Of a stretch of 10,733 nucleotides of DNA, positions 1 to 10,733 are shown one piece after another. Origin of the DNA: a virus (Duplodnaviria; Heunggongvirae; Uroviricota; Caudoviricetes); the IMG/VR virus record IMGVR_UViG_2740892112_000004, positions 1-10,733 of that record, one strand, 5' to 3'. The stretch's first letter is position 1; the number at the start of each line of letters is the position of its first letter. A model generated the notes under the pieces. It had not been told where the DNA came from. It searched no databases and worked only from the letters and a program-made list of their open reading frames with translations. Both the position numbers and the translations under genes were made by a program.

Positions 1-165
1 ATGGCAAAGCCGATCATCACGCTCAATGGCCTAAAAATCGTCATTATGTTGGGAATGCTGGTCATTATTCTCTGCGGTATCCGTTTTGCCGCCGAGATTA
101 TCGTGCCGTTTATTCTCGCATTATTTATTGCTGTTATATATAACTCATTTCACTTAACACATTGA
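1..165 (+). pseudogene. 5' fragment of a membrane-transporter gene (N-terminus resembles AI-2E family exporter TqsA/YdgG as I recall it); probable chromosome/element junction
   Basis: ATG at 1, 46 codons of strongly hydrophobic sequence ([46 protein letters not shown]), then the frame changes character (YNSFHLTH) and stops at 163-165. AT-rich non-coding DNA follows. Family assignment is from memory. Confidence 0.45.
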
Positions 166-211
166 TTTAATTAAATAATTTTCACTACAAAAAGTGCCAT
201 AAATCGCAAAA

Positions 212-233
212 TGACTACACCAGTGACTACACC
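212..233 (+). repeat. Tandem direct repeat TGACTACACC x2 (12-bp period); candidate integrase arm-type sites
   Basis: tgactacacc at 212-221 and again at 224-233, about 75-95 bp from the putative junction; a related tcactacaa lies at 182-190. Function is inferred only. Confidence 0.3.
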
Positions 234-342
234 GTTCGGTGCACTGTATGAAACAACGTGGAACAAATAGACACAAGAAATATACAGGCGGGTCATCTTT
301 CCAGGGGGAAGCGCGCTAATTCATGAGGGGCGTTAATGTTGA

Positions 343-358
343 TATGGGGATCCCCATA
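343..358. repeat. 16-bp perfect palindrome TATGGGGATCCCCATA
   Basis: Read directly. A second hairpin follows at 367-384 (ACCGGA, T6 loop, TCCGGT). Confidence 0.5.
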
Positions 359-550
359 ACGGGGCTACCGGATTTTTTTCCGGTTAACTGTTAATCAGGC
401 TGGTGGGCTTTACCTGTTTTGTAGGAGTGGTCATTATGACCATTCAGACAATGACCTTAATCAGAACTTTTCGCTAAAAAATGGCGTTGGTCACGTCGTC
501 CGGAAAGCACAAAATCCCGTCAATTTTTAATTAACGGTTAAACCGTCTTT

Positions 551-600
551 TGTCACGGCGTGTCACTGGTTGTCACTCTCCGTCACGGTATGTCGCTACT
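551..600 (+). repeat. Five head-to-tail 10-bp units each beginning (T/C)GTC(A/G)C; candidate protein-binding array
   Basis: tgtcacggcg / tgtcactggt / tgtcactctc / cgtcacggta / tgtcgctact at exactly 10-bp phasing, ending just before the stop codon of the 603-884 ORF. Confidence 0.5.
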
Positions 601-602
601 CG

Positions 603-884
603 TTAACGCCGTAACCGCTCCGGCTTCTTCCAGTGGTACGTAATTTTCTCCGTTTCCCGATACAGTGCCACGCGGCGATTGTAGGCCAGCATTTCAAGAA
701 CGCGGATCCGTATGTTGCGCATATCCACATCATTAAGCTGGATACCATCACGGCGCATCACCTCAGCAACCACACGCGCGTAATTTTCGGCGGTCACGCT
801 GTCCGGCTGCGTGGCCTGTTCGTCATGCTGCTGGCTGATTCCGGTAACGCGGCGGATTAATCCCAGTAGTTCGGCTTCTGTCAT
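603..884 (-). CDS. Hypothetical protein, 93 aa
   Basis: ORF with a GGGGG Shine-Dalgarno about 5 nt upstream of the ATG at 884. No family recognised. Confidence 0.5.
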   Translation of the reverse strand: MTEAELLGLIRRVTGISQQHDEQATQPDSVTAENYARVVAEVMRRDGIQLNDVDMRNIRIRVLEMLAYNRRVALYRETEKITYHWKKPERLRR

Positions 885-920
885 TGTGCCCCCATCGCTC
901 TGATAGTCTGGTGTCGTCGG

Positions 921-1115
921 GTCCTTCCTGGAATTATGGCCCGTTACGGGGCGGCGACCTCGCGGTTTTTATCTGTTTATGAAAATTTTTCTGGAAAAAG
1001 CATGTCGGTACTTCTCGAACATAACTATTTGTTTTTAAATAGATACACAATAAAAAGAAACGACACGGTAATCATCTAAAATGGCGATTTATGACGCTTT
1101 CATGTCGTTTCTCAG
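921..1115 (+). other. Lambda-type cos site, copy A: cosQ-like flank, cosN (GGGCGGCGACCT at 949-960), and a cosB with R3/I1/R2/R1-like layout
   Basis: ccgttacgGGGCGGCGACCTcgcggtttttatctgtttatgaaaatttttctgg matches my recollection of the lambda cohesive-end region. R-site-like motifs: catgtcggtacttctc (1001-1016) and catgtcgtttctc (1101-1113) direct, agaaacgacacg (1055-1066) inverted, with an AT-rich IHF-like stretch between. Confidence 0.8.
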
Positions 1116-1139
1116 TTTTGTTCAATAATTGCGCGTCTG

Positions 1140-1682
1140 TTACTCGCCTTTCTTCTGTAGCAACTTTTCCGGTACGTTTCCGGTTGTTTCTTTCAAGTAA
1201 TCAGCCAGTATCTGTGGGAGGTTGTCGGCAACTCTGGCACTGGCATTACAGGCTTTAACCACTTCCCTTTTAAGCCTATCCAGCATGGCGGGGGTAATCT
1301 GTGGGAAGCTCCTTTGCATAGTAAGCGGGAGGCTGTCCATGATTGATGAAATCTGACTCGCCAGCTTTGAAAGCGCGTACAGGCAAAACTCAGTATCAAT
1401 CACGTCACCGCGATCGCGCTCGTTTTTAAGTTCCTGCGCCTCCGCCTGTGCTGTCAGTAATCTGATCCTGACTCGTAAGAGTTCATCATCATCAATATCG
1501 CCTTTGTCGTTTGTAAGCTGGCTAATTGCATTGTTAACCCTATTGTCTATCACGCTGGCAACATCGTAAAACGCCTCACGGCCTTTACGTTCAACGGGAG
1601 TCACTCCCCACTTGTCGAACGCTGTCGCACTTACACGGCAGCTTTTCGCCATGTTTTTTTTGTTCATCAGGTGCGATTTCAT
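1140..1682 (-). CDS. Terminase small subunit, lambda Nu1-like (175-180 aa; start could be 1682 or the Met at 1667)
   Basis: Full-length resemblance to lambda Nu1 as I recall it. N-terminal NKK..A......V.....W............G.E..YD.A.VI and central/C-terminal LTAQAEAQELKNERD ... TEFCLYALSKLASQISSIMDSLPLTMQRSFP. Similar length (Nu1 is 181 aa). No clear SD at either candidate start. Confidence 0.8.
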   Translation of the reverse strand: MKSHLMNKKNMAKSCRVSATAFDKWGVTPVERKGREAFYDVASVIDNRVNNAISQLTNDKGDIDDDELLRVRIRLLTAQAEAQELKNERDRGDVIDTEFCLYALSKLASQISSIMDSLPLTMQRSFPQITPAMLDRLKREVVKACNASARVADNLPQILADYLKETTGNVPEKLLQKKGE

Positions 1683-1683
1683 T

Positions 1684-1721
1684 AATACACCAACTTAATT
1701 ACTGCTTCAGGTTGGTGTATT
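1684..1721. promoter_or_regulatory. 11-bp perfect inverted repeat (AATACACCAAC ... GTTGGTGTATT, 16-bp spacer) abutting the terS start codon
   Basis: Read directly; complementary arms at 1684-1694 and 1711-1721. Confidence 0.35.
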
Positions 1722-1789
1722 GTTTGCATCTTTCCCTTTTCATTCATAAAGATAGAGCAAACAACAAAACCACCACCCCCCTGAAAAGG

Positions 1790-1850
1790 CTCATAAATAG
1801 CGAAAAACCGCGAGGTCGCCGCCCCGTAACGGGTCCATATGCCGGAAAGG
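1790..1850 (-). other. Lambda-type cos site, copy B (inverted relative to copy A): cosQ-like flank plus cosN (minus-strand GGGCGGCGACCT = plus 1813-1824), no recognisable R sites
   Basis: Minus strand reads tatgggtcctttccggcatatggacccgttacgGGGCGGCGACCTcgcggtttttcgctatttatga. About 85% identical to copy A over roughly 70 bp. Sequence beyond that, toward terS, diverges and lacks GTCGTTTC-type motifs. Confidence 0.75.
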
Positions 1851-1856
1851 ACCCAT

Positions 1857-1880
1857 AAAAAAAAGCCGGATTTCTCCGGC
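1857..1880 (-). terminator. Intrinsic terminator after the capsid operon
   Basis: Minus strand: GCCGGA-GAAA-TCCGGC hairpin followed by T8, immediately after the stop of the 1887-2300 ORF. Confidence 0.6.
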
Positions 1881-1886
1881 CTTGTC

Positions 1887-2300
1887 TCAGATGGTTTTCA
1901 GTATGCGATCGATGTCGCCGTCATCGCCCTGGTTTCTGCCATCGTATGCCATGCCAGCTGATACGGCTTGCGGGCTGTGCATGTCCATAAAGTTTTCAAA
2001 GGCTGCAGTAAGTTCCGGCGCAACCTTCGGACGTTCCTGCTCTATGGTCATGCTAAGGATGCTTTTAGCCGTACCAACATCGATACAAGGCACGTTTGCC
2101 ATTGCACGTAACAGCGGCTGATAGTCGCCAGATTCATCAAGCGCCATAATCGCATCAGCGCGCGGCTTGTCCTGCTCTTCCAGTTTGTTTAGTTGATATA
2201 CGGCCTCATAGGTTGATAAACCTCTGTCAGCCATTGCCCGCGCTTCGGCTTTAAATTTACTCGCCAGCGGTAGCGTCATGATGCTTTCATTCGTTGCCAT
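1887..2300 (-). CDS. Hypothetical protein, 137 aa (possibly head or packaging accessory by position)
   Basis: ORF with AGGGGGAA SD 4-5 nt upstream of ATG at 2300; last gene of the capsid operon. No family recognised. Confidence 0.5.
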   Translation of the reverse strand: MATNESIMTLPLASKFKAEARAMADRGLSTYEAVYQLNKLEEQDKPRADAIMALDESGDYQPLLRAMANVPCIDVGTAKSILSMTIEQERPKVAPELTAAFENFMDMHSPQAVSAGMAYDGRNQGDDGDIDRILKTI

Positions 2301-2312
2301 CGTTCCCCCTGC

Positions 2313-2648
2313 TTATCGGGCCAGCGGCTGAACGGATACGCCAGAACCCGCAAAGGCGGCGCATTTTTTCGCATCGGTGTCGACGCTCTCAGGCCAGTTA
2401 ACGGCGGCAATATTGAATATCCCCGTCTTGTAACACTGTGCTGATTTCTGCTTTGACGTGTCCACAGGGTACGAGGTCAGATAAACAGCCTTGCCAGATT
2501 CCTTACCATCCCACGGCTTAAACTCGCCATTGTCCGCCAGCATCAGCGGGGTAAATTCCTGAATAACGCCAGCATCAGCGGCAAAATGTACCAGCGTCGT
2601 GGCGACCTGCTGACTGCCTGCAAATAACTCAATGTATGGAGTGTCCAT
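2313..2648 (-). CDS. Head decoration protein, lambda gpD-like (111 aa)
   Basis: Motifs matching my recollection of lambda gpD: TPLMLAD, WDG, CYKTGIF, WPESVDTDAKKCAAFAGSGVSV (lambda: [38 protein letters not shown]). Similar length. GGGGGA SD. Confidence 0.75.
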   Translation of the reverse strand: MDTPYIELFAGSQQVATTLVHFAADAGVIQEFTPLMLADNGEFKPWDGKESGKAVYLTSYPVDTSKQKSAQCYKTGIFNIAAVNWPESVDTDAKKCAAFAGSGVSVQPLAR

Positions 2649-2659
2649 AGAATCCCCCG

Positions 2660-3715
2660 TTAACCAATTTTGACGGTAACAAATTTACGAATATCTGCCG
2701 GAACCGGCTGCGGTGCGCTGTGCGTCTGCACGTACTCAATCGCCGGATCGCCGTCCCCAATCCAGTTTTTCGGGTAAAACATGTTTTGCGTTGCGCCCGT
2801 TCTTACTGCGTCCTGATCCATAATCGCACCATAGGCCACCAGCCCTTTATTGTTGGTGTTGCCCAGAACCAGCAAATCAGGCTCAAGGAAATATTTTTCT
2901 GTGCCGTCGCTGTCAGTGTATTTGCCGGAATAGACGATAAGGGCAATATCGCCCAGATAGCCTTTAAAGCTCACCACTTCGCCCAGGTTTTTACAGGCCA
3001 GTTCGGCGGCGGACTCTGAACCACGGGAAAGATCGTACAGCTCACGGAATTTTTTAAAGCTGCGTAACGTGCGCCATACCTCAGCGCCCATAATCATGAC
3101 GTTTGCGGGGCAACCAGCCTGATCAGCATAAAGCTCGATGTCATAGATTGGGTCGTGCATGTCTTTATCCTGCTCGGACCATTTTTTACCCTTGGCCTGC
3201 TCTATGATGCAGTTTTCCGGTATTTTCCAGTCGATTTCATAGCGTTCTATGCCTTCGCCCTCAATGATGTTTTTTCCGGTCGTTATCGCATTCACCGCCA
3301 GCCATTCCACGCGCGCTTTAATGGCGTTTACCTGGCGGCGCATGTTGCCAGTAATCAGGCGCATACGGCGGTAGGTAGGGTCGTTAAGCTGTGCCGGATC
3401 TTCTCCAGCCATGCGCATGATGGTTTTCGTTGGATCGATTTCGTGCTTTGGCTTCATGTAGCCAGGTTTAATTGTGCTGGTTTCGTACCCTTTATCGCGC
3501 TGTACCTGGCTGCCAACCATAGGCGAACAAAACGCCGACATGGTGACTTCTTCAATGTCCAGGGTATCCAGCATGATGTTTTGCGTGCTGAATGTCGCCA
3601 CGTTCGGGAAAAACAGCGTAGTAAACAGAGGGTTGAATTTAAAATCCGCAATATCCCCGCGATTCAGGTACATGAAAAGCTGGTTAGTGTTAAGTGCCGT
3701 TGCTTTGCCTGTCAT
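2660..3715 (-). CDS. Major capsid protein, lambda gpE-like (351 aa)
   Basis: Collinear similarity to lambda gpE as I recall it: FKFNPLF..LFF, PGYMKPKHEIDP, DPTYRRMRLI, VSFKGYLGDIALIVYSGKY, LVLGNT, YPKNW..GDPA, SAP. GGGGGTGA SD. Start overlaps the upstream stop (TAATG). Confidence 0.8.
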   Translation of the reverse strand: MTGKATALNTNQLFMYLNRGDIADFKFNPLFTTLFFPNVATFSTQNIMLDTLDIEEVTMSAFCSPMVGSQVQRDKGYETSTIKPGYMKPKHEIDPTKTIMRMAGEDPAQLNDPTYRRMRLITGNMRRQVNAIKARVEWLAVNAITTGKNIIEGEGIERYEIDWKIPENCIIEQAKGKKWSEQDKDMHDPIYDIELYADQAGCPANVMIMGAEVWRTLRSFKKFRELYDLSRGSESAAELACKNLGEVVSFKGYLGDIALIVYSGKYTDSDGTEKYFLEPDLLVLGNTNNKGLVAYGAIMDQDAVRTGATQNMFYPKNWIGDGDPAIEYVQTHSAPQPVPADIRKFVTVKIG

Positions 3716-3921
3716 TATTCACCCCCGTGAACCTGATTCATACCCAGCGCCGCGCGTAAATAGGCGCGTACCTGCCAGCCTGTTGACGGCTCAACCATCG
3801 CCAGCGGATCAAGTCCTGCCGCAATGCCTGCTTTTACGTTCTGCTGGTGGCGTTCCTTGAGCGCCTTCACGATGTCGGGGCTGATGTACACCGAAACACC
3901 GCCTTTTTTCTCTTCAGCCAT
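3715..3921 (-). CDS. Hypothetical protein, 68 aa, first gene of the capsid operon
   Basis: ORF with AGAGGAA SD; stop overlaps the capsid gene start, suggesting translational coupling. No family recognised. Confidence 0.5.
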   Translation of the reverse strand: MAEEKKGGVSVYISPDIVKALKERHQQNVKAGIAAGLDPLAMVEPSTGWQVRAYLRAALGMNQVHGGE

Positions 3922-3944
3922 AGTAAGAAATTCCTCTTTGACTT

Positions 3945-3980
3945 AAAAAATCATAACTGGATGTTCATCCAGTTATGATT
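3945..3980 (-). terminator. 32-bp palindrome (15-bp perfect arms, 2-bp spacer, 3949-3980) followed on the minus strand by a U-run; terminator/attenuator or operator
   Basis: aatcataactggatg tt catccagttatgatt read directly; the minus-strand hairpin is followed by about 6 T. Confidence 0.45.
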
Positions 3981-4086
3981 ATAATCATGATTGCATTTTG
4001 TGCAATGATATTGAGTTGCGTTGCAAATTATGAAATGATTATCCCGATCATGTGTGTCAGTGCACCAAAAAACCTCATATGCAAAA

Positions 4087-4125
4087 GCCCGATAAGATGC
4101 CTCCTGTACTTATCGGGCTTTTTTT
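4087..4125 (+). terminator. Intrinsic terminator (stronger on the plus strand)
   Basis: GCCCGATAAG, 12-nt loop, CTTATCGGGC, then T7 at 4119-4125. Confidence 0.5.
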
Positions 4126-4131
4126 GGGTAC

Positions 4132-4153
4132 AAAAAAGCCGGATTACTCCGGC
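4132..4153 (-). terminator. Intrinsic terminator immediately after the perC-like gene
   Basis: Minus strand: GCCGGA-GTAA-TCCGGC followed by T6, starting 7 nt after the stop at 4160-4162. Confidence 0.6.
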
Positions 4154-4159
4154 TGTTGA

Positions 4160-4432
4160 TTAGCTGTCTGGGTAATTACGCCATATTTCATCGCTTACAC
4201 CATCTATACCCATTTCAGCATAAGTGCGATCTACTGCCTTTCTCAGGTCTCCGAAGTTATCCGGCGGCTCCGGTGGCTTCTGTGCCTTCCTGGAACATTC
4301 CAGCCGTCGCATCGTAACCTGATGCCGTTCCTTGTCTGTCTCCACCAGCAGCATGACTTCACCCCATCGCGCCGATGCCCTCCGGTAAAAGCCTTTTGCC
4401 TCGAGTTCCTCCGCTATGCGGTCATGTACCAT
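4160..4432 (-). CDS. PerC-family transcriptional regulator-like protein (90 aa; start at internal Met 4432 of the 4160-4552 ORF)
   Basis: MVHDRIAEELEAKGFYRRASARWGEVM fits the PerC-family N-terminal pattern as I recall it. GGGGGTGA SD 4 nt upstream of the 4432 ATG, which lies directly after the ssb stop; the longer ORF would overlap ssb by 110 nt. Confidence 0.5.
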   Translation of the reverse strand: MVHDRIAEELEAKGFYRRASARWGEVMLLVETDKERHQVTMRRLECSRKAQKPPEPPDNFGDLRKAVDRTYAEMGIDGVSDEIWRNYPDS

Positions 4433-4442
4433 CGTCACCCCC

Positions 4443-4853
4443 TCAGAACGGAATATCATCACCGTAGGGGTCATCGTCTCCCGCTGGTGGCTGATTACCC
4501 TGTGTGCCTGTGGTTTTGCGTCTGTTCCCGCCAGGACGTGCCGCACGGGCACTGATTACGCTGTCTGCAATAACCTGATAACCCTGCCGCGTTTCCCCGT
4601 TCTGTCCGGTCCACTGGCTGACCTGCATCGTGCCGGATACGCTGGCAACGTCGCCTTTTTGATGTTTAGCCAGGAAGTCGGCCTGCTTACCAAATGCGAT
4701 GACCGATAGCCATAACGTAGCCTGCCCATCCTGCGCCTGACTACATGGCAACGATACCGCCATACGTGCCAGCGTCATTGGTGTGCCCTTGCTGGTCTGT
4801 TTTACCTGCGGGTCGTCCACCAGCCGCCCGTAAGCTGCTATCTGTGCTGTCAT
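4443..4853 (-). CDS. ssb: Single-stranded DNA-binding protein (136 aa)
   Basis: OB-fold SSB pattern with the hallmark acidic C-terminal tip DDDPYGDDIPF. GGAGAGGTGG SD. ATGA start/stop overlap with the upstream gene. Confidence 0.85.
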   Translation of the reverse strand: MTAQIAAYGRLVDDPQVKQTSKGTPMTLARMAVSLPCSQAQDGQATLWLSVIAFGKQADFLAKHQKGDVASVSGTMQVSQWTGQNGETRQGYQVIADSVISARAARPGGNRRKTTGTQGNQPPAGDDDPYGDDIPF

Positions 4854-5101
4854 GATTCCACCTCTCCGGTTTTAACGTTGATGGTTGTCACCTGTTCAGC
4901 TTCCGCAATCTCCCGCTCTGTCAGCGTGGCAAAATTTGCCGCCGTCGTGGTCATGAATGCGCTTATCAGTTCGGGATGTGCTTTCGCGTATCCTTCCCCC
5001 GCGTGGCGGTCTATCGTTCTGATTGCCACCTTTAAGGCGTGCTCTGTCATGTCTAACGCTTTATATTTTGGCTCTGTTCTGTCTCTGTGTTTTTGAGTCA
5101 T
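4850..5101 (-). CDS. Hypothetical protein, 83 aa (start at internal Met 5101 of the 4850-5233 ORF)
   Basis: GAGGTGG SD before the 5101 ATG. The N-terminal extension of the longer ORF is a translation of the iteron repeats and is probably not coding. Confidence 0.45.
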   Translation of the reverse strand: MTQKHRDRTEPKYKALDMTEHALKVAIRTIDRHAGEGYAKAHPELISAFMTTTAANFATLTEREIAEAEQVTTINVKTGEVES

Positions 5102-5102
5102 T

Positions 5103-5306
5103 TGCCCACCTCTACCCACTTTTTTCGCCCACTTTTTACGTTTTCCCACTTCGTCCAACGTGGGAAATTTGGGATTTATATCATCTTGTTTCATAGGTAT
5201 TTTTTTAGTGCCCACTTTTTGGGATATATACACGTGGGAAAGTGGGTAATTTTGTTAAAATTCCGTTAAATCACCCACCTTTCCCACTTTTAATGCCCAC
5301 TTTTTA
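5103..5306. repeat. Iteron array, putative replication origin: at least 8 direct and 3 inverted copies of (G)CCCAC(TTTTT) with AT-rich spacers
   Basis: Direct copies near 5104, 5115, 5128, 5145, 5211, 5274, 5283, 5296; inverted GTGGGAAA/GTGGGTAA near 5160, 5234, 5242. Lies immediately 3' of the helicase gene. Confidence 0.6.
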
Positions 5307-6701
5307 CAGTGGTCCTACATCATCACCGTCAATGTAGATCACGTCGTCTTTTTCCAGTTTGGCTAACCATCGTTTAAGGTGTTTTGTGTCATACCCCAGC
5401 TTTTTCATATCGTCACGTAACAGCGGGATCGTGCACTTGTCGCCGTGCTGTGTGCGTGAACGTATGCATCCCCATAGCGCGGTATGGTTTTCCGTCTTGT
5501 TGCCTGCCTCCTCGATGCGCTCCAGTTCAACGGGAGGGCGCGGCTTATCCACCACCACCAGCGACGTGATTAACTCCCCGTCAGCGTCGGTAAAAAGCTC
5601 CACCACGCGTAAGTCATATGCGGCTTCTTTGAGTTCCTCCGCGTCCTTCATTTTGGTGCATGAGATAACCAGCGCTTCGCTTCCTGCGTCCTCCCTGCGT
5701 ATCCGGTATTCAGCATCCAGCGAAGCACGAAATGCACTGGAACCGCGCGCGCCTTTCGTCTCATCCTTGCCGGAATGGTGAACCACCAGCACCGTGGCCC
5801 CTGTGCGTCGTTTCAGTTCGTCACAACCACGGATAAACGCCCCCATATCACGGGAATCATTTTCATCATTACCACCAAAGCAACGCGCCAGCGTATCCAG
5901 AATAATCATGCGAACAGGTTTACCCGTTTCCCTCTCCACCTGACGGGCAGCGATAACCATTTCATCAACATCAAGCGGGACCGCCGGAAAGATGGGACGG
6001 TTTACCAGATACAGATTTTTCACCTGCTCACCGTGCACAACCTCCCAGGCTTTTACACGACGCGGAACGCCGATACCGCCTTCACCAACCACATAGAGAA
6101 CAGCGCCATGCGCCACCCTGCGGCCTCCCCACTGACGGCCCGTGGAAACGTGACACGCCCACGAACCCGCAAGGAATGATTTATAGGAACCGCTTGCCCC
6201 GTATATGCTGCATAGCGACGATGCCGGAATAATCCCCTTTACCACGTAATCTAATTGCGTGTCGTATCCGGCAGATCCAACGCTCATCGGTAGCGTGGTT
6301 TTTCGCTGGTGGTGTTCTTCCCCTGGCTTTTTCCCCCGCTCCCGTTCCAGATATTCGCGCCAGTTCTCCCGCTTCTGGCCGTGTATCCCTTCGGGGTAAT
6401 AATTCGCATCAGTTACGCCCGCCGCCGCCAGCTTGTGCGCAATGGCATTAATATTTGATGGCCTGATGTGGCCTGCCTTGTACAGCCGGACACAATAGCG
6501 CCCCTCGTCGATGATTCTCAGGTCTGCCAGTTCATCCAGTTGATCATCAGCCAGCACAATGGGAGGCACATTATCGCCAGCCAGTCGCCCGTCCTGTTCC
6601 TGCCACTGTTTCGCATGTGCCCACGCATCACTACCCGCAAAAATGATGACTTCGGTCATCTTGTCGTAAGGCTGTTTTTTTAAGTTCGGTGCGCTTTTCA
6701 T
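5304..6701 (-). CDS. Replication initiator/helicase, RepA-like (AAA_25-type RecA-fold ATPase), 465 aa
   Basis: Walker A-like GASGSYKS, Walker B-like RMIILDTLARCF, VLVVHHSGK motif typical of RepA/DnaB-like helicases. C-terminal about 80 aa could be a DNA-binding domain (inference). AGGGG SD. ATGA overlap with the upstream ORF. Confidence 0.75.
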   Translation of the reverse strand: MKSAPNLKKQPYDKMTEVIIFAGSDAWAHAKQWQEQDGRLAGDNVPPIVLADDQLDELADLRIIDEGRYCVRLYKAGHIRPSNINAIAHKLAAAGVTDANYYPEGIHGQKRENWREYLERERGKKPGEEHHQRKTTLPMSVGSAGYDTQLDYVVKGIIPASSLCSIYGASGSYKSFLAGSWACHVSTGRQWGGRRVAHGAVLYVVGEGGIGVPRRVKAWEVVHGEQVKNLYLVNRPIFPAVPLDVDEMVIAARQVERETGKPVRMIILDTLARCFGGNDENDSRDMGAFIRGCDELKRRTGATVLVVHHSGKDETKGARGSSAFRASLDAEYRIRREDAGSEALVISCTKMKDAEELKEAAYDLRVVELFTDADGELITSLVVVDKPRPPVELERIEEAGNKTENHTALWGCIRSRTQHGDKCTIPLLRDDMKKLGYDTKHLKRWLAKLEKDDVIYIDGDDVGPL

Positions 6702-6997
6702 TTCTTGCCCCTGAATCCGTTAATCATGGTTTTCAGCTTCTGGATGTTTGCCCGTGCCCTGGCGTTGCTGGTGGGCACGTTATGCGGCGCGGTCTGTACC
6801 AGAGAAAAATCACGCCGGAACTGATAAACAGGCATCACGCAATCATATTCGTAACCTTCACGGCGGTAAGTTACGCACCGTCCCGCCACGCCCTTAATCA
6901 TTACCGTGCCGCCGTACTGGTCGCGGTAAATATCACCGCGCATAAATTTAGGGTGAGTGTTGCCACTGGCAGTTAAGCCAGAATATTTAAGTTTCAT
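6698..6997 (-). CDS. Hypothetical protein, 99 aa
   Basis: ORF translationally coupled to the helicase gene (ATGA overlap); GGAGAA SD. No family recognised. Confidence 0.5.
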   Translation of the reverse strand: MKLKYSGLTASGNTHPKFMRGDIYRDQYGGTVMIKGVAGRCVTYRREGYEYDCVMPVYQFRRDFSLVQTAPHNVPTSNARARANIQKLKTMINGFRGKK

Positions 6998-7002
6998 TAT
7001 TT

Positions 7003-7236
7003 TTATTCTCCGGTGTGCTGTTCGTTATATCTGTCGTGCAATGTCTCTATTTCCTGCAACTCATTTATTACAGGCTCAAGAAGCGTTATTAATGATGTAA
7101 TAATCCGCGTTTTTTTTGCATTACGTTCATTATCGCCAAAGGATTCAAGGCACATCCGCAATATTTCGTACATACCTTCAGCGTAAGCAAGGGCACTAAA
7201 TGCGCGGTCTATTGTTTCAAGATAAATATCACGCAT
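7003..7236 (-). CDS. Hypothetical protein, 77 aa, net acidic
   Basis: ORF starting ATGCGTGAT (MRD), overlapping the upstream stop by 8 nt; GAGGA SD. Confidence 0.45.
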   Translation of the reverse strand: MRDIYLETIDRAFSALAYAEGMYEILRMCLESFGDNERNAKKTRIITSLITLLEPVINELQEIETLHDRYNEQHTGE

Positions 7237-7462
7237 GGCTTACATCCTCAGGAAATTTTCTTCTGTAACGCGCCTCTGCCACATATTCCGCATAATCGGC
7301 GGCGATATTCAGTACATCAAGTCCCGTTGATTTATATTCTTTCGTGGAAAGTAAGAAAAAAGCCGCTCTAATAAGTTCTGGCATTGACGAAAGCGCATCA
7401 GCCGCATCATCAGGAACGCCGGAAAATTCCTGTTTCAGGGAATTAAAACGATCATCACGCAT
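7229..7462 (-). CDS. Hypothetical protein, about 77 aa (start uncertain: Met at 7462 with poly-G SD, or 7489)
   Basis: ORF 7229-7489. The internal ATGCGTGAT start at 7462 overlaps the upstream stop by 8 nt and follows a G8 run on the minus strand. Confidence 0.4.
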   Translation of the reverse strand: MRDDRFNSLKQEFSGVPDDAADALSSMPELIRAAFFLLSTKEYKSTGLDVLNIAADYAEYVAEARYRRKFPEDVSHA

Positions 7463-7694
7463 AACCCCCCCCATTTTCACAATCAGCAATCAGGATAGCT
7501 TTGGCCTCATTCAGCGCCGTATCAGCACTAAATTGCATGACAGCCAGTGAGTGAGGAACGAAAGCACCGGCATATTCTGTTTCGCTGGTGGCGTGCTTAT
7601 GTGCCCTGTCCGCGATAACAGAAATATCAATCAGCGCGTGCATCAGCGTTTTGATGGCTTCGGCGGCTGCGTCCGGTGTGGTTTTATTGTGCAT
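7455..7694 (-). CDS. Hypothetical protein, 79 aa
   Basis: ORF with AGGGGA SD 7 nt upstream of ATG at 7694. The C-terminal GGG codons lie in the C8/G8 tract. Confidence 0.45.
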   Translation of the reverse strand: MHNKTTPDAAAEAIKTLMHALIDISVIADRAHKHATSETEYAGAFVPHSLAVMQFSADTALNEAKAILIADCENGGGYA

Positions 7695-7896
7695 AAAGCA
7701 TCCCCTGAATATTCGTGTTAATCATTCCGGCACGTTTTGTGATTTCCTGTAATGATTCCCTTGTGGCGACAATTGCTTCATCTGGTAAGTGGTAATTACA
7801 CACCACGCGACCTTTATCCACATTGACCAGTAGCTGCCCTGTGAATTTCTCACGAAACTGAATGCGGTTAAGGTCAGTAAGTGACAGATTAATCAT
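7684..7896 (-). CDS. Hypothetical protein, 70 aa (start at internal Met 7896 of the 7684-7938 ORF)
   Basis: Very good AGGAGGT SD 6 nt upstream of the 7896 ATG. Confidence 0.5.
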   Translation of the reverse strand: MINLSLTDLNRIQFREKFTGQLLVNVDKGRVVCNYHLPDEAIVATRESLQEITKRAGMINTNIQGMLYAQ

Positions 7897-8086
7897 GGCG
7901 CACCTCCTGACGAATACGGGCGGCAAATACAGCAACACAACCGGACGGGCAACGGTTACGCGCTTCGCGTTCCGTCCAGGCGGTTACGTGGATGATTTGA
8001 GATTCTCCGGCACTCAGTGCCAGAAAACGCCACACAAAGGCCGTTTGTGTGTGTACAAGGTGTGGTATATGATTTACAGCAACCAT
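7889..8086 (-). CDS. Hypothetical protein, 65 aa, first ORF of the long operon (start at internal Met 8086 of the 7889-8161 ORF)
   Basis: TAGGAG SD 6 nt upstream of the 8086 ATG; downstream of the predicted promoter and leader hairpin. Confidence 0.45.
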   Translation of the reverse strand: MVAVNHIPHLVHTQTAFVWRFLALSAGESQIIHVTAWTEREARNRCPSGCVAVFAARIRQEVRHD

Positions 8087-8117
8087 AACGGCTCCTAGTT
8101 TACGTTGTTGGTTAGAA

Positions 8118-8158
8118 GCCCTGCGAGTGGTAACGACACTTGCGGGGCTTTGTCTTTT
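8118..8158 (+). terminator. Strong 12-bp stem-loop; plus-strand terminator-like (followed by TTTGTCTTTT) and also a 5'-leader hairpin of the minus-strand operon transcript
   Basis: GCCCTGCGAGTG, 7-nt loop, CACTTGCGGGGC (two G-U pairs as RNA), T-rich tract on the plus strand. Confidence 0.35.
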
Positions 8159-8179
8159 CATCGATTACCTTGATAAAGG

Positions 8180-8259
8180 TGTCAGCCACTATATTAGTAA
8201 CGGGTGTCAGCCACGTCAATAGTGTTTTTCCGTTTTCTTGTGTGTATACTGTCAGCCAC
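8180..8259. promoter_or_regulatory. Three direct repeats (G)GTGTCAGCCAC; candidate operator sites in a divergent promoter region
   Basis: TGTCAGCCAC at 8180-8189, 8205-8214 and 8250-8259. The first overlaps the predicted minus-strand transcription start, the second sits in the promoter spacer, the third lies just downstream of a plus-strand TATACT (8245-8250). Confidence 0.5.
8191..8219 (-). promoter_or_regulatory. Sigma70-like promoter for the long minus-strand operon (-35 TTGACG, 17-bp spacer, -10 TAATAT)
   Basis: Minus strand reads TTGACG (plus 8214-8219), a 17-nt spacer, then TAATAT (plus 8191-8196). Predicted start near 8184. Confidence 0.5.
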
Positions 8260-8280
8260 CTAATAACGAGGAAATCAGAT

Positions 8281-8460
8281 ATGGCAACAAAAGCAGTTAA
8301 TGCAAAATCCAAAAAGCTTGAGGCTCGAGTACCACACGCAATAGCTGATGCTGTAGAAAATTTAAAGGAAGATGGCGAAAGTACAGGGCAATTTATCGTT
8401 TCGGCACTTGAAGGCGAGATCAAACGCCGCCAGCGCCGCAAGGCCAAAGAATCAGAATAA
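8281..8460 (+). CDS. Small putative DNA-binding protein, ribbon-helix-helix-like (59 aa; start at internal Met of the 8140-8460 ORF)
   Basis: GAGGAAA SD upstream of ATG 8281. KKLEARVPHAIADAVENL...GESTGQFIVSALEGEI resembles a beta-strand/helix/turn/helix RHH pattern; basic C-terminal tail. Fold assignment is tentative. Confidence 0.45.
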   Translation: MATKAVNAKSKKLEARVPHAIADAVENLKEDGESTGQFIVSALEGEIKRRQRRKAKESE

Positions 8461-8517
8461 TCACTATCAGCGCCGTGGTGTGAGGTATTACGGCGCATTG
8501 CTATGCAGGACAACACA

Positions 8518-8691
8518 ATGACCGATAAAGAATTGACCAAAACATTATCACCGGCACGGAAAAGACGGCGCAGAAAGATAGAGCATGAATCAGAAAGATT
8601 CGCGTCATGTGCTTTTGCCCTTGAGCAATTCCTTAAAGAGTACAGGGAAAAGCGCTCATTGCAGGTATGGCAACGAACTGAACCAGACTGA
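8518..8691 (+). CDS. Hypothetical small basic protein (57 aa; start at 8518, or 8503)
   Basis: AGGA SD 7 nt upstream of ATG 8518. Contains an ARKRRRRK tract. Followed by the terminator at 8787-8814. Confidence 0.4.
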   Translation: MTDKELTKTLSPARKRRRRKIEHESERFASCAFALEQFLKEYREKRSLQVWQRTEPD

Positions 8692-8786
8692 TTGCATTGC
8701 CCACCAGCCTGATAGCGGCTATCATCCCCGTGCTTATGTTTGGGATCACACACACAAACGGCGCAGCGGGTTATCTGTTCAGAAAG

Positions 8787-8814
8787 GCGGCTCCATTTCG
8801 GGGCCGCTTTTTTT
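8787..8814 (+). terminator. Rho-independent terminator ending the plus-strand two-gene module
   Basis: 8-bp GC-rich stem (GCGGCTCC / GGGGCCGC, one G-U), 5-nt loop, then T7 at 8808-8814. Confidence 0.7.
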
Positions 8815-8960
8815 ATACCTGAAAAACCCCAATTTTGTTGTTTTTCAGTTTCACCAGGGCGAACGAATCCCCGCCCACGTTCTGGCGTATATTCAATCTT
8901 CATGGTTATAGCTCTGTGTTCAGATGATTGATGTGTGGCGGCTGCGTGCCGCCAGCGTGA

Positions 8961-9149
8961 TTAATGAACTGCCTTGCAGCTATCCTTCCAGGCCAGAACC
9001 TCGGATAAAGACCAGCCAACGGAACGACCGCCAAGTTTACGACGTGATGGGAATTGTCCGGCCTTTTCCAGGCGGTAGCGACACGTACGGCTAAGGCCGG
9101 TTAGTTTTTCGCATTCTTTTTCACGTATAAACCGATCAGTGCTTAACAC
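8961..9149 (-). CDS. alpA: AlpA-family DNA-binding protein (prophage CP4-57-type regulator/excisionase-like), 62 aa
   Basis: Helix-turn-helix pattern typical of AlpA/Vis proteins (LTGLSRTCRYRLEKAGQFPSRRKLGGRSVGWSLSEVLAW). AAGGGGGGG SD. Lies immediately downstream of int on the same strand. Confidence 0.8.
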   Translation of the reverse strand: MLSTDRFIREKECEKLTGLSRTCRYRLEKAGQFPSRRKLGGRSVGWSLSEVLAWKDSCKAVH

Positions 9150-9482
9150 TATTGCCCCCCCTTTCGTTTCTTAAAGAGTCATCAGGTGTCTTATTGTGTC
9201 GTATTGTTCCCGCTAGAGTGATGAATGGCAAATATTGAGGATGTATGATTTACAGAAAATGAAACAGTAAGAATAAAATCTTTTAAATTCATGTTAATAC
9301 AAAGGCATAAAATATTGTTTCATGCCTTTTTTCTCGCTCTTTAAAGAGTGATTCGCTAGTGTATAAAAAACCAGTGACACATTAAAAATCAGCCACTTAT
9401 AAATCTGTATGCTTTTTCGCCTCTTGTTCGTGGTTGTTCCACATTGTTGCTCATTGTTGCACGTTGTATCTGTTCGCATATA

Positions 9483-9498
9483 CAGTATGCGCATACTG
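9483..9498. repeat. 16-bp perfect palindrome CAGTATGCGCATACTG between int and alpA
   Basis: Read directly; 18 bp downstream of the int stop codon. Confidence 0.5.
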
Positions 9499-9515
9499 AA
9501 AAAACACGAAAAAAA

Positions 9516-10733
9516 TTATTTTCTTCTGGCTACTGGTAGCGTGGTTACGTTTTCATGTGTTCCCGCCAGTATCCCTAACCGCTCCGTCCACATATCCAGC
9601 GCATTGCGTTTAGCATCCAGATAACGGGAATGATTATAAACTCGCTGCATTCCTGGCATCTGGTGGCCTGTAAGCTGCTCCACGACATGCGGATCAACGC
9701 CTAAATCGTTCAGCATGGTTGTAAAGGTGCGCCGGATGTCATGCAGTGACCAGTGAGGATGATTAAGCCTCCTGTGCGCTAATCTTCCATACTGCGATAC
9801 GCTGGCCTCCTGTTTCACTTCCCCCAGCAATAAGCCCGTGTGCCTGTTCTGCTCCACCAGCTGCGTGACGAACGGCAGGATCGCTTCCGGTATGGGCCGG
9901 AATATTGCGACCTTCGTTTTGCTGTGCTCCTTCGGAACGGTCCATAGCATTTCCGTAAAATCCCACTCCCCGATCTCCGATAACCTCAGTTCTACCGTTC
10001 TGGCTCCGAAGACAATCAGGAGGCGGATTAACGCGACGTAGTAAGGGGAGAATATTTTTTTGTCCAGTGCCTGCAATAATTCGCCAAGTTCTTTGTTACT
10101 TAAGACACGTTCGCTTATATCCGGTTTTTTCCCAACGTCCGCCACGTTCAGATCGTCCAGAACGTTGCTGATTGCATAGCGCCGCCTACGGCAGAACTTA
10201 AGCGCCTGTTTGCACGCCTGTAGCACGAATCCGGCAGTAACAGGCGTTCGCTTTGCCACCTGGTCAAAACAGGCCAGCCAGTGCCGTAGCTCGCATTTAT
10301 CCAGCGGCATAGCACCAATCTGCTGTATTACGTGATTATTAAGTCGCCTTTTCAGGGCGATATAATCCACGCGGTTTTCCTTTACGTAATACTCAAGCCA
10401 GTAGGTGAGCGCATCGCCAACCGTTACCGGCTTTAACGCTTCCTGTACGGTGTAATTAAGCTCATGACGTGGATTTTTCCCCTCTGCCAGCCATGCGCGA
10501 CACTGGGCGGCTTTTTCCCTGGCTGATTTCAGGCTCAGATCAGGATAACTTCCCAGCTTAATGCGTTCGGGTCGTGTCTCCCTTCCCGTTCCGGCCCTGT
10601 ATGTGAAATACCAGGTCAATTTCCCTGATGTTAAATATTTCACGCTCAGGTTTCCGCCATCACTATAAAACGTGTTTTTCTCCGCTGGCTTACCATGAAG
10701 TTTCCTTAGCAAGGTATCGCTCAGTTTGTTCAT
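9516..10733 (-). CDS. int: Tyrosine site-specific integrase, P4-type (405 aa)
   Basis: N-terminal arm-binding-type region (DGGNLSVKYLTSGKLTWYFTYR). Catalytic-domain pattern with conserved Arg (FGARTVELRLSE), His/Arg box (WSLHDIRRTF) and C-terminal Tyr region (RVYNHSRY). ATG is the last three bases of the window on the minus strand. Confidence 0.9.
   Translation of the reverse strand: MNKLSDTLLRKLHGKPAEKNTFYSDGGNLSVKYLTSGKLTWYFTYRAGTGRETRPERIKLGSYPDLSLKSAREKAAQCRAWLAEGKNPRHELNYTVQEALKPVTVGDALTYWLEYYVKENRVDYIALKRRLNNHVIQQIGAMPLDKCELRHWLACFDQVAKRTPVTAGFVLQACKQALKFCRRRRYAISNVLDDLNVADVGKKPDISERVLSNKELGELLQALDKKIFSPYYVALIRLLIVFGARTVELRLSEIGEWDFTEMLWTVPKEHSKTKVAIFRPIPEAILPFVTQLVEQNRHTGLLLGEVKQEASVSQYGRLAHRRLNHPHWSLHDIRRTFTTMLNDLGVDPHVVEQLTGHQMPGMQRVYNHSRYLDAKRNALDMWTERLGILAGTHENVTTLPVARRK

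Follow-up and report, generated by a model that had tools for sequence, protein, structure and literature searches.

The DNA analyzed here, hereafter the window, comprises the 10,733 nucleotides at positions 1 to 10,733 of the IMG/VR record IMGVR_UViG_2740892112_000004, assigned to the Caudoviricetes. On its minus strand, at 6698–8086, it carries a run of six small open reading frames (ORFs) that leads into a replication gene, and we number these o1 to o6 in the direction of transcription. Our analysis suggests that they form part of a conserved early operon of a phage-inducible chromosomal island (PICI), organized like the left operon of satellite P4, in which an Icd-like leader is followed by accessory cassettes, RgdR and the replicase; we favor this reading, together with the mechanistic steps proposed for it below, with moderate confidence. 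The initial annotation, made from the sequence without database searches, had described six small overlapping ORFs of 65–99 aa at the head of a replication operon, and their coordinates and lengths agree with ours. Its statement that none of the six matches a recognizable family does not hold, as o1 is an Icd-like protein (NF033153) and o6 belongs to DUF4222 and corresponds to RgdR. The operon is a widespread and already annotated feature of a known satellite family, with two of its six genes named and one of them characterized experimentally.

The first cistron, o1 (7889–8086; 65 aa), has the sequence AGGAG 7 nt 5′ of its ATG. It is followed, all on the minus strand, by o2 (7684–7896; 70 aa), a conserved hypothetical protein and variable cassette (phrog_340, 1e-23); by o3 (7455–7694; 79 aa) and o4 (7229–7462; 77 aa), two acidic and predicted helical proteins that match positions 1–76 and 78–154, respectively, of the 154 positions of phrog_2512 (o4 also matches phrog_24341); by o5 (7003–7236; 77 aa), likewise acidic and predicted to be helical (phrog_2196, 1.4e-30); and by o6 (6698–6997; 99 aa). 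The run ends at the replicase (5304–6701; 465 aa), a RepA-type AAA_25 helicase (PF13481, 2.8e-44; phrog_2850, 5e-255), the relatives of which are named “helicase RepA family protein” in RefSeq. The good Shine–Dalgarno (SD) sequences and the stop/start overlaps that had been reported are present: a purine-rich, SD-like motif lies 5′ of every start, that of the replicase included (AGGAG, AGGAGG, GGGGA, a run of eight G, GAGGA, GGAG and GGGG). The start of o2 lies over the stop of o1 with an 8-nt overlap (ATGATTAA), o2 and o3 overlap by 11 nt, the o3/o4 and o4/o5 junctions each place the downstream start over the upstream stop with an 8-nt overlap (ATGCGTGA in both), a gap of 5 nt lies between o5 and o6, and the stop of o6 overlaps the start of the replicase by 4 nt (ATGA).

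As the initial annotation had noted, ATGCGTGA begins a protein with MRD at both of its junctions, and these are the only two copies in the window. The bare count of this 8-mer is not significant (0.53 copies are expected, and two or more are found in 22 of 200 shuffles); the junction is seen again in related loci, and it is this recurrence and the position of the copies that carry weight. The MRD start is common to o4 and o5 because they share the junction sequence. Paralogy of o4 and o5, or of any pair among o2–o5, was considered and rejected (hhalign probability below 1%). Where at least two products had been thought acidic we find three, with net charges of −5 (o3), −4 (o4) and −7 (o5), while o6 is strongly basic (+12, isoelectric point 10.2). 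The exact proteins o1–o6 each occur on 351 to at least 1000 public contigs; dN/dS against divergent alleles is 0.3–0.5 for o1, o2, o3 and o5 (0.33–0.43 for o5, and 0.52 for o2 when set against locus L004) and 0.09–0.3 for o6, where substitutions suffice for an estimate; and RefSeq annotates the run as Icd-like, three to five hypothetical proteins, DUF4222 and helicase RepA. Because the exact proteins recur on so many contigs, dN/dS is below 1 and RefSeq annotates the genes, the six ORFs are, as judged by conservation, genuine coding sequences.

Membership of o1 in the Icd-like family is seen in a score of 64.8 bits against NCBIfam NF033153 (phage_ICD_like; cutoff 25, E 5.2e-18) and in 37% identity over 52 aa to the founding protein, Icd of phage P1 (E 2e-7), which itself matches NF033153. 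The C-terminus of the P4 eta/kil frame matches the same model at 7.8e-21, and phrog_1743 is common to o1 and P4 Eta/Kil. By homology, o1 is an Icd-like family member with a predicted activity in cell-division inhibition. P1 Icd is annotated as inhibiting division and as required for ant expression, and P4 Kil kills cells (PMC10111431). Given the shared Icd domain and the leader-cistron position, o1 corresponds to both P4 Kil and P1 Icd, two host-toxic or division-blocking leader cistrons whose translation affects downstream expression.

The last of the six, o6, scores 82.6 bits against PF13973 (DUF4222; gathering score 27, E 1.5e-23). RgdR (ECs1581) is a DUF4222 protein of 99 aa with an isoelectric point of about 10 and an RGD motif at residues 20–22, the importance of which has been described (Flockhart et al. 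2012, PMC3378721), and o6 is 99 aa long, has an isoelectric point of 10.17 and carries an intact RGD at residues 20–22 (FMRGDIY). It is identical at 94 of 99 positions (95%) to the O157:H7 protein encoded at the OI-51-type position, the substitutions relative to the compared O157 strain being M19T, A38E, G39E, C41R and I92V. On this comparison o6 is an RgdR ortholog. RgdR binds DNA nonspecifically, activates LEE1 of the enterocyte effacement locus (LEE) and type III secretion, and represses motility (PMC3378721), and it is encoded by all E. coli PICIs analyzed by Fillol-Salom et al. (2018, PMC6092414). Deletion of the O157 island lowered sheep colonization. One could read from these phenotypes that the small ORFs in general are host-directed regulators, or morons, that serve bacterial fitness or virulence in the manner of RgdR and of PerC, which the island also encodes. 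We consider this very unlikely, since the genes are part of an early operon that depends on induction and are coupled to the replicase, the same cassettes are found in commensal and LEE-negative strains such as Nissle 1917, and o2–o5 have no DNA-binding signature. The source genome of the window may be one without LEE.

The setting of the operon is that of a satellite, as the initial annotation had held. Between fragments of tqsA, the window matches the E. coli 042 island colinearly at 95–99% identity, and from this match we identify it as a PICI of the EcCI042 type inserted in tqsA; EcCI042 itself was named as a PICI by Fillol-Salom et al. (2018, PMC6092414). In the direction of the minus strand, the integrase comes first, then alpA, a divergent ylcI-type gene and the six ORFs, and after these the replicase, SSB, PerC, tandem terminators and a late module; int, alpA and the replicase all lie on the minus strand in the order typical of Gram-negative PICIs. 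The island fills the 10.7-kb window, has the small size of Gram-negative PICIs (about 10–15 kb) and its own attachment site, and carries no lysis or tail genes; its virion genes are limited to those for E-like capsid, D-like decoration and Nu1-like proteins. At its end lies a tyrosine integrase (9516–10733, minus; Phage_integrase and Arm-DNA-bind_3 domains), followed by an AlpA-family activator or excisionase-like protein (8961–9149, minus; PF05930, 5.4e-17) with 45% identity to P4 Vis. In EcCICFT073 the island genes are activated by AlpA, which is itself induced by a helper (Fillol-Salom et al. 2018, PMC6092414).

Three known E. coli PICIs, namely EcCI042, the EcCICFT073/Nissle 1917 island and O-island 51 (CP-933C, O157:H7), follow the same order as the window, from int and alpA (with or without ylcI) through an Icd-like gene, small ORFs and RgdR to replicase, SSB and PerC. 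The o1 and o2 proteins are identical in the window, the L001 island and the 042 island, and have the same RefSeq accessions in the O157:H7 island, whereas the o5 allele of the window is only 71–73% identical to those of strain 042 and Nissle. Of 5426 complete E. coli genomes, 1480 have a match to DNA of the operon region, and the carriers of related sequence include O157:H7, Nissle 1917 and strain 042. Matches in the phage database are nearly absent: the window DNA finds none in either the near or the distant search mode, o2 finds none by tblastn, and o1 finds a single one, in a 16.5-kb record described as an “induced prophage.”

The left operon of P4 runs from vis, an alpA homolog, through nested eta and kil, epsilon, orf151 and orf106, with 8-nt overlaps, to the alpha replicase. 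In P4, a promoter inside eta is constitutive and Kil is the short form of Eta (Mageeney et al. 2023, PMC10111431); Eta is coupled to vis, and its translation permits read-through to the downstream genes (PMC10111431). The likeness to the window extends to the AlpA/Vis homolog upstream (45% identity), a candidate internal promoter within the long ORF, small cistrons that run to the replicase with 8-nt overlaps and, in relatives of the window, a long ORF with a nested short C-terminal Icd-domain product, with the tie between translation of the leader ORF and read-through as the corresponding feature of P4. The satellite-position parallel drawn in the initial annotation is also borne out, in that the operon sits where P4 has its helper-derepressing epsilon gene. 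There are also differences between the two operons. The nested eta/kil-like arrangement is absent from the window itself, where the ORF at 8903–8112 is out of frame. In place of a CI/seqA-type RNA there is a divergent YlcI-type gene with repeats, and an Rfam scan of the whole window for immunity RNA of the C4, isrK, CI or seqA type gave no match at E up to 1. Finally, the replicase of the window is a RepA-type AAA_25 helicase, whereas P4 alpha is a primase-helicase.

The immI operon of P1 (c4 RNA, icd, ant1/ant2) is alike in having the Icd gene as a short first cistron that overlaps the start of the next gene; it differs in its C4 RNA, for which Rfam finds no counterpart in the window, and in its Ant proteins, of which no homolog follows o1. 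A further system with an Icd-like protein is the ECOR61 “prophage” locus, where six linked genes are reported to cause cell death upon expression of a phage accessory gene (Silas et al., bioRxiv 10.1101/2023.04.06.535777). There, too, an Icd-like gene, the proposed effector, stands with several small genes and a replication gene, in that case a primase. The Icd-like protein of that locus carries a long extension at its N-terminus; in the window this extension is broken. An abortive-infection or programmed-cell-death module would accordingly combine an Icd-like toxic effector with linked small proteins that sense or gate a phage protein, as the six-gene ECOR61 locus suggests (bioRxiv 10.1101/2023.04.06.535777), and the killing of cells by P4 Kil, which has the same domain, points the same way. 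Such a module seems improbable to us as an account of the window: the likeness of the ECOR61 locus to the window is one of description, the N-terminal extension is broken here, and PADLOC-DB 2.0 returned no families at E up to 1 for o1–o6, the replicase, YlcI or the 263-aa ORF upstream of o1. Moreover, no part in defence need be assumed to explain an Icd-like gene, since a division block during the lytic cycle of the satellite itself does so.

Under the P4-like reading, o2–o5 are accessory cassettes held between fixed ends, and the variation among related islands bears on this directly. A scan of IMG/VR with o2 yielded 80 loci, mostly on contigs of about 7–20 kb, and the sample is thus selected for o2 homologs. 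Icd, RgdR and a replicase occur together in 82 loci, and in every one of these Icd stands first and RgdR lies directly 5′ of the replicase; one to six cassettes stand between Icd and RgdR, and the replicase is of either of two unrelated types. Among these 82 loci o3 is present in 66, o4 in 60 and o5 in 28; the order of o2 and o3 is reversed in some islands (L004), and the smallest islands of the o2-selected sample have Icd, o2 and RgdR only. The o2 family comprises 29 clusters, from Escherichia only, with a short form of 70 aa and a long form of about 121 aa, and the o5 family comprises 440 clusters, all 120 matches listed being from E. coli and nearly all 77 aa long. As far as these families reveal, o2–o5 appear confined to Escherichia and Shigella.

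This pattern also decides how we weigh the view that o2–o5, and perhaps RgdR, are replication accessory factors (origin-binding proteins, helicase loaders or primosome adaptors) coupled so as to be made in a fixed ratio with the replicase. Genes o2–o6 do lie immediately upstream of the replicase, with translational coupling to it, RgdR always stands just before the replicase, whichever of the two types that is, and RgdR binds DNA nonspecifically. Set against this, the cassettes vary in number (one to six) and in order and combine freely with two unrelated replicase types; islands reduced to Icd, o2 and RgdR occur in the o2-selected sample; searches of Pfam, NCBIfam, PHROG and PDB show no similarity to known replication proteins; and three of the cassette proteins are acidic, a property ill-suited to DNA binding. 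We regard a replication role of this kind as unlikely. Searches of PDB, whether with single sequences (o1, o2, fused o3-o4, o5 and o6) or with profiles (o2 and fused o3-o4), gave nothing at E of 0.1 or below. Predicted secondary structure, at low confidence, gives two long helices for o3, a helical o4, and a beta-hairpin with a long helix for o2. A literature search on the neighboring Sakai/EDL933 locus tags (ECs1578–1580, Z1839–1841) found only a comparative-hybridization list and the mapping of rgdR. Nothing that we found marks o2–o5 as unusual beyond their having no assigned function.

Whether o3 and o4 are two genes or one depends on a homopolymer. A run of eight G (G8; 7465–7472, minus) lies just 5′ of the o4 start, and its length sets the split or fused state. 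The single family phrog_2512, with 154 positions, covers both proteins, and o3 and o4, split in the window, are fused in strain 042 and in O157: the fused protein has 154 aa in a 99.6%-identical island (L001) and in O157:H7, and 155 aa in strain 042 (L002). The only difference between the split and fused forms is the length of the homopolymer before the o4 start. With G8, the state of the window and of Nissle 1917, there are two cistrons with ATGCGTGA at their junction; with G7 (the L001/O157 type) or G10 (strain 042), there is one fused gene. The earlier count of six ORFs therefore stands for the window and is state-dependent beyond it, where o3 and o4 are one gene of 154 or 155 codons in many relatives. 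Direct counting in the fetched related loci gave G7 seven times, G8 four times, G9 once and G10 twice, each length with its predicted products, as at a phase-variable locus with a frame-switching tract; among complete genomes sampled at even spacing, the 44 full-length matches comprised 26 annotated as one gene and 18 as two. The tract figures come from these two sources, and the identity bands of a BLAST probe were discarded because of rounding. The fused state is shared along a lineage, being found in every O157:H7 genome of the sample. The variation may reflect phase variation or, in single assemblies, homopolymer sequencing noise.

The G-run probably doubles as the ribosome-binding site of o4. 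Since natural fusions are tolerated, Rosetta-stone reasoning suggests that o3 and o4 act together. The exact 79-aa o3 is found on 912 contigs and the exact o4 on 991, and in L004 and about 240 genomes o4 stands by itself after another upstream gene. In a set of 1.84 billion representative proteins the o3/o4 family forms 63 clusters, mostly of separate halves of about 75 aa, and we infer that the two-gene state is older than the fusion. A second junction type, in which a long o2 runs into o4, has a tract of G6 to G10. The two junction forms read GAAAAT-Gn-TTATGCGTGA and CATTCA-Gn-TAAACATGCGTGA, the second being seen, for example, at about 2490–2510 of L004. Across these junctions, poly-G length switches the neighboring proteins among separate, truncated and fused forms.

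The broken frame could also be taken as a sign that some of the ORFs, the split o3/o4 above all, are decaying or untranslated remnants of a defective island. The G8 tract interrupts a frame that is continuous in many relatives, the eta-like ORF discussed below is broken too, and for the island of strain 042 no transfer was detected (PMC6092414). These signs are outweighed, in our judgment, and we consider decay highly improbable. The split form keeps a stop/start overlap and a G-rich SD sequence; it is also the state in Nissle 1917, whose island shares the roxA-side position and the layout of the mobilizable CFT073 island; the exact split proteins are present on about 900–1000 contigs, and the halves are mostly separate proteins among the 63 representative clusters; and dN/dS is below 1.

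Upstream of o1, a candidate sigma-70-like promoter at 8191–8219 (minus), pointing into the operon, has a −35 element TTGACG (8219–8214), a 17-nt spacer and a −10 element TAATAT (8196–8191), with 9 of 12 positions agreeing in a consensus scan, and divergent alleles preserve its geometry. The 10-bp sequence TGTCAGCCAC is present as three direct repeats, at 8180–8189, 8205–8214 and 8250–8259, that is, just after the −10 element, beside the −35 element, and adjoining a conserved TATACT near the start of ylcI. Divergent from the operon is the gene for a YlcI/YnfO-family, ribbon-helix-helix-like protein of 59 aa (8281–8460, plus; NF041551, 1.1e-16). In the loci examined, ylcI occurs as 42 distinct alleles; these show in-frame indels and share a conserved strand, “(K/R)S...R.P(H/L)”, at the N-terminus. 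The repeat sequence co-varies with this N-terminal strand in at least 11 allele groups (loci L003–L087) while the promoter geometry stays constant. Because the repeats co-vary with the YlcI alleles, we suggest that YlcI and the three repeats, its putative operators, form an allele-specific repressor-operator (immunity) switch over the six-ORF operon. A literature search turned up no account of what YlcI does, nor of any ribbon-helix-helix repressor in E. coli PICIs. A conserved leader hairpin with a 15-bp stem is found at 8115–8151, in terminator form on the plus strand; compensatory changes affect six of nine pairs across eight alleles, a conserved TCTAACCA follows it, and it has no Rfam match. 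A cis-antisense RNA ending at this hairpin was considered and dropped, as no conserved antisense promoter is present in 13 alleles. A basic ORF of 62 aa (8503–8691, plus) lies 3′ of ylcI, matches phrog_21027 (E 3.6e-14) and is hypothetical in relatives; it probably forms a two-gene unit with ylcI.

The region between alpA and o1 also holds, on the minus strand, a 263-aa ORF (8112–8903) that is the broken remnant of a long eta-like ORF. Its frame differs from that of o1, and it ends 25 nt short of the o1 ATG. The long ORF is intact in 65 of 70 related loci, where it starts just after alpA and ends in frame with the Icd domain, typically at 435–528 aa; examples are 539–1939 in L004, 4422–6008 in L051 and 3719–5257 in L084, the counterpart in the window being 8112–8903 plus 7889–8161. 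On its way to the Icd domain the long ORF runs antisense to ylcI and to the small gene that comes next. Its middle part, encoded antisense to these genes, is rich in Ser, Leu, Arg and Cys and junk-like, yet it is kept open. For ylcI and the antisense long ORF, dN/dS cannot tell the coding strand, since the two frames have their third codon positions in common.

We therefore picture the P4-like operon as follows, with each step conditional. A helper phage would switch on alpA, and the operon would be transcribed from the alpA side, from the internal sigma-70 promoter, or from both, the latter promoter normally being shut by the allele-specific YlcI repressor on the three repeats. The stop/start overlaps would hand ribosomes from cistron to cistron down to the replicase. 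The Icd-like product may transiently block host division while the island replicates, and RgdR, as a small basic DNA-binding protein, may alter host transcription and, in a putative further role, that of the island. The cassette proteins, that is, o2 together with the acidic and helical o3, o4 and o5, could play an accessory part by binding proteins of the helper or the host, in the manner of P4 epsilon.

Several observations weigh against this scheme. The eta-like ORF is broken in the window copy, and the promoter into the operon is putative, being a consensus match. Table 1 of Fillol-Salom et al. (PMC6092414) reports no detected transfer of the marked strain 042 island, so this type of island may be inactive or lack a known helper. 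For o2–o5 in particular, Pfam, NCBIfam, PADLOC and PDB give no matches, and BLASTP of o2–o6 against P4 epsilon, orf151 and orf106 shows no significant similarity, their PHROG families differing as well. The check by AlphaFold and Foldseek that the initial annotation had proposed was carried out in part: the AlphaFold2 models of fused o3-o4 (47-sequence alignment; pLDDT 55, pTM 0.34) and of o2 (26 sequences; pLDDT 55, pTM 0.28) are too poor for use, and a Foldseek search of PDB with the o2 model, poor as it is, found no match (best E 4.1, probability at most 0.04). The roles proposed for o2–o5 are drawn from position, variability, charge and the analogy with P4. As for helper interference, anti-repression and anti-defence, which the initial annotation had raised for small early genes of this kind, these database and structure searches speak neither for nor against them in the middle four genes.

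A bolder form of the proposal would make o2–o5 a reservoir of undescribed effectors that target helper or host (an epsilon-like derepressor, interference proteins, cell-death gates), place the operon under an as yet undescribed immunity switch of Gram-negative PICIs that consists of an allele-specific YlcI-type repressor encoded antisense inside an eta/kil-like nested gene, three co-varying operators and an internal promoter, and have slippery poly-G tracts at the cistron junctions toggle neighboring proteins between separate and fused forms. We put this forward tentatively, as a possibility that we doubt more than we believe.

Some observations concern the rest of the island. Positions 1–165 of the window are a 5′ fragment of tqsA (ydgG), with a counterpart at 2064–2207 of the E. 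coli 042 locus L002, so the island interrupts an autoinducer-2 (AI-2) transporter gene at its left end; a relative in ED1a is reported at the same ydgD–ydgG position. The late module spans 1140–3921 and includes a Nu1-type small-terminase-like gene (1140–1682), a lambda D-type decoration gene (2313–2648) and a lambda E-type major capsid gene (2660–3715); the window proteins scanned included no portal, protease or large terminase. Positions 996–1783 differ from the E. coli 042 island. In L001 a near-identical early operon is joined to a full HK97-type capsid-forming module, so that this O157-like island has an HK97-type set where the window has the lambda E/D/Nu1 type, and the combination of the same early operon with a different late module indicates that the two modules recombine independently. 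Two tandem terminator-like hairpins with U-tracts (4081–4155, minus) lie just 3′ of the PerC gene and set the capsid block apart from the early/replication block; they came up only through a weak, chance-level Rfam match to ncr1175 (E 0.32).

For the original finding the result is mostly deflationary, as the operon is of a known kind and two of its “unknown” genes already had names. For annotators, the number of hypothetical proteins in such islands shifts with the poly-G tract, and the “Icd-like” genes found here are the tail of a larger nested gene. The silencing of Gram-negative PICIs was described as unclear in 2018. Related operon sequence is present in about a quarter of complete E. coli genomes, and the leads most worth following are the toggling by poly-G and the putative regulatory switch.

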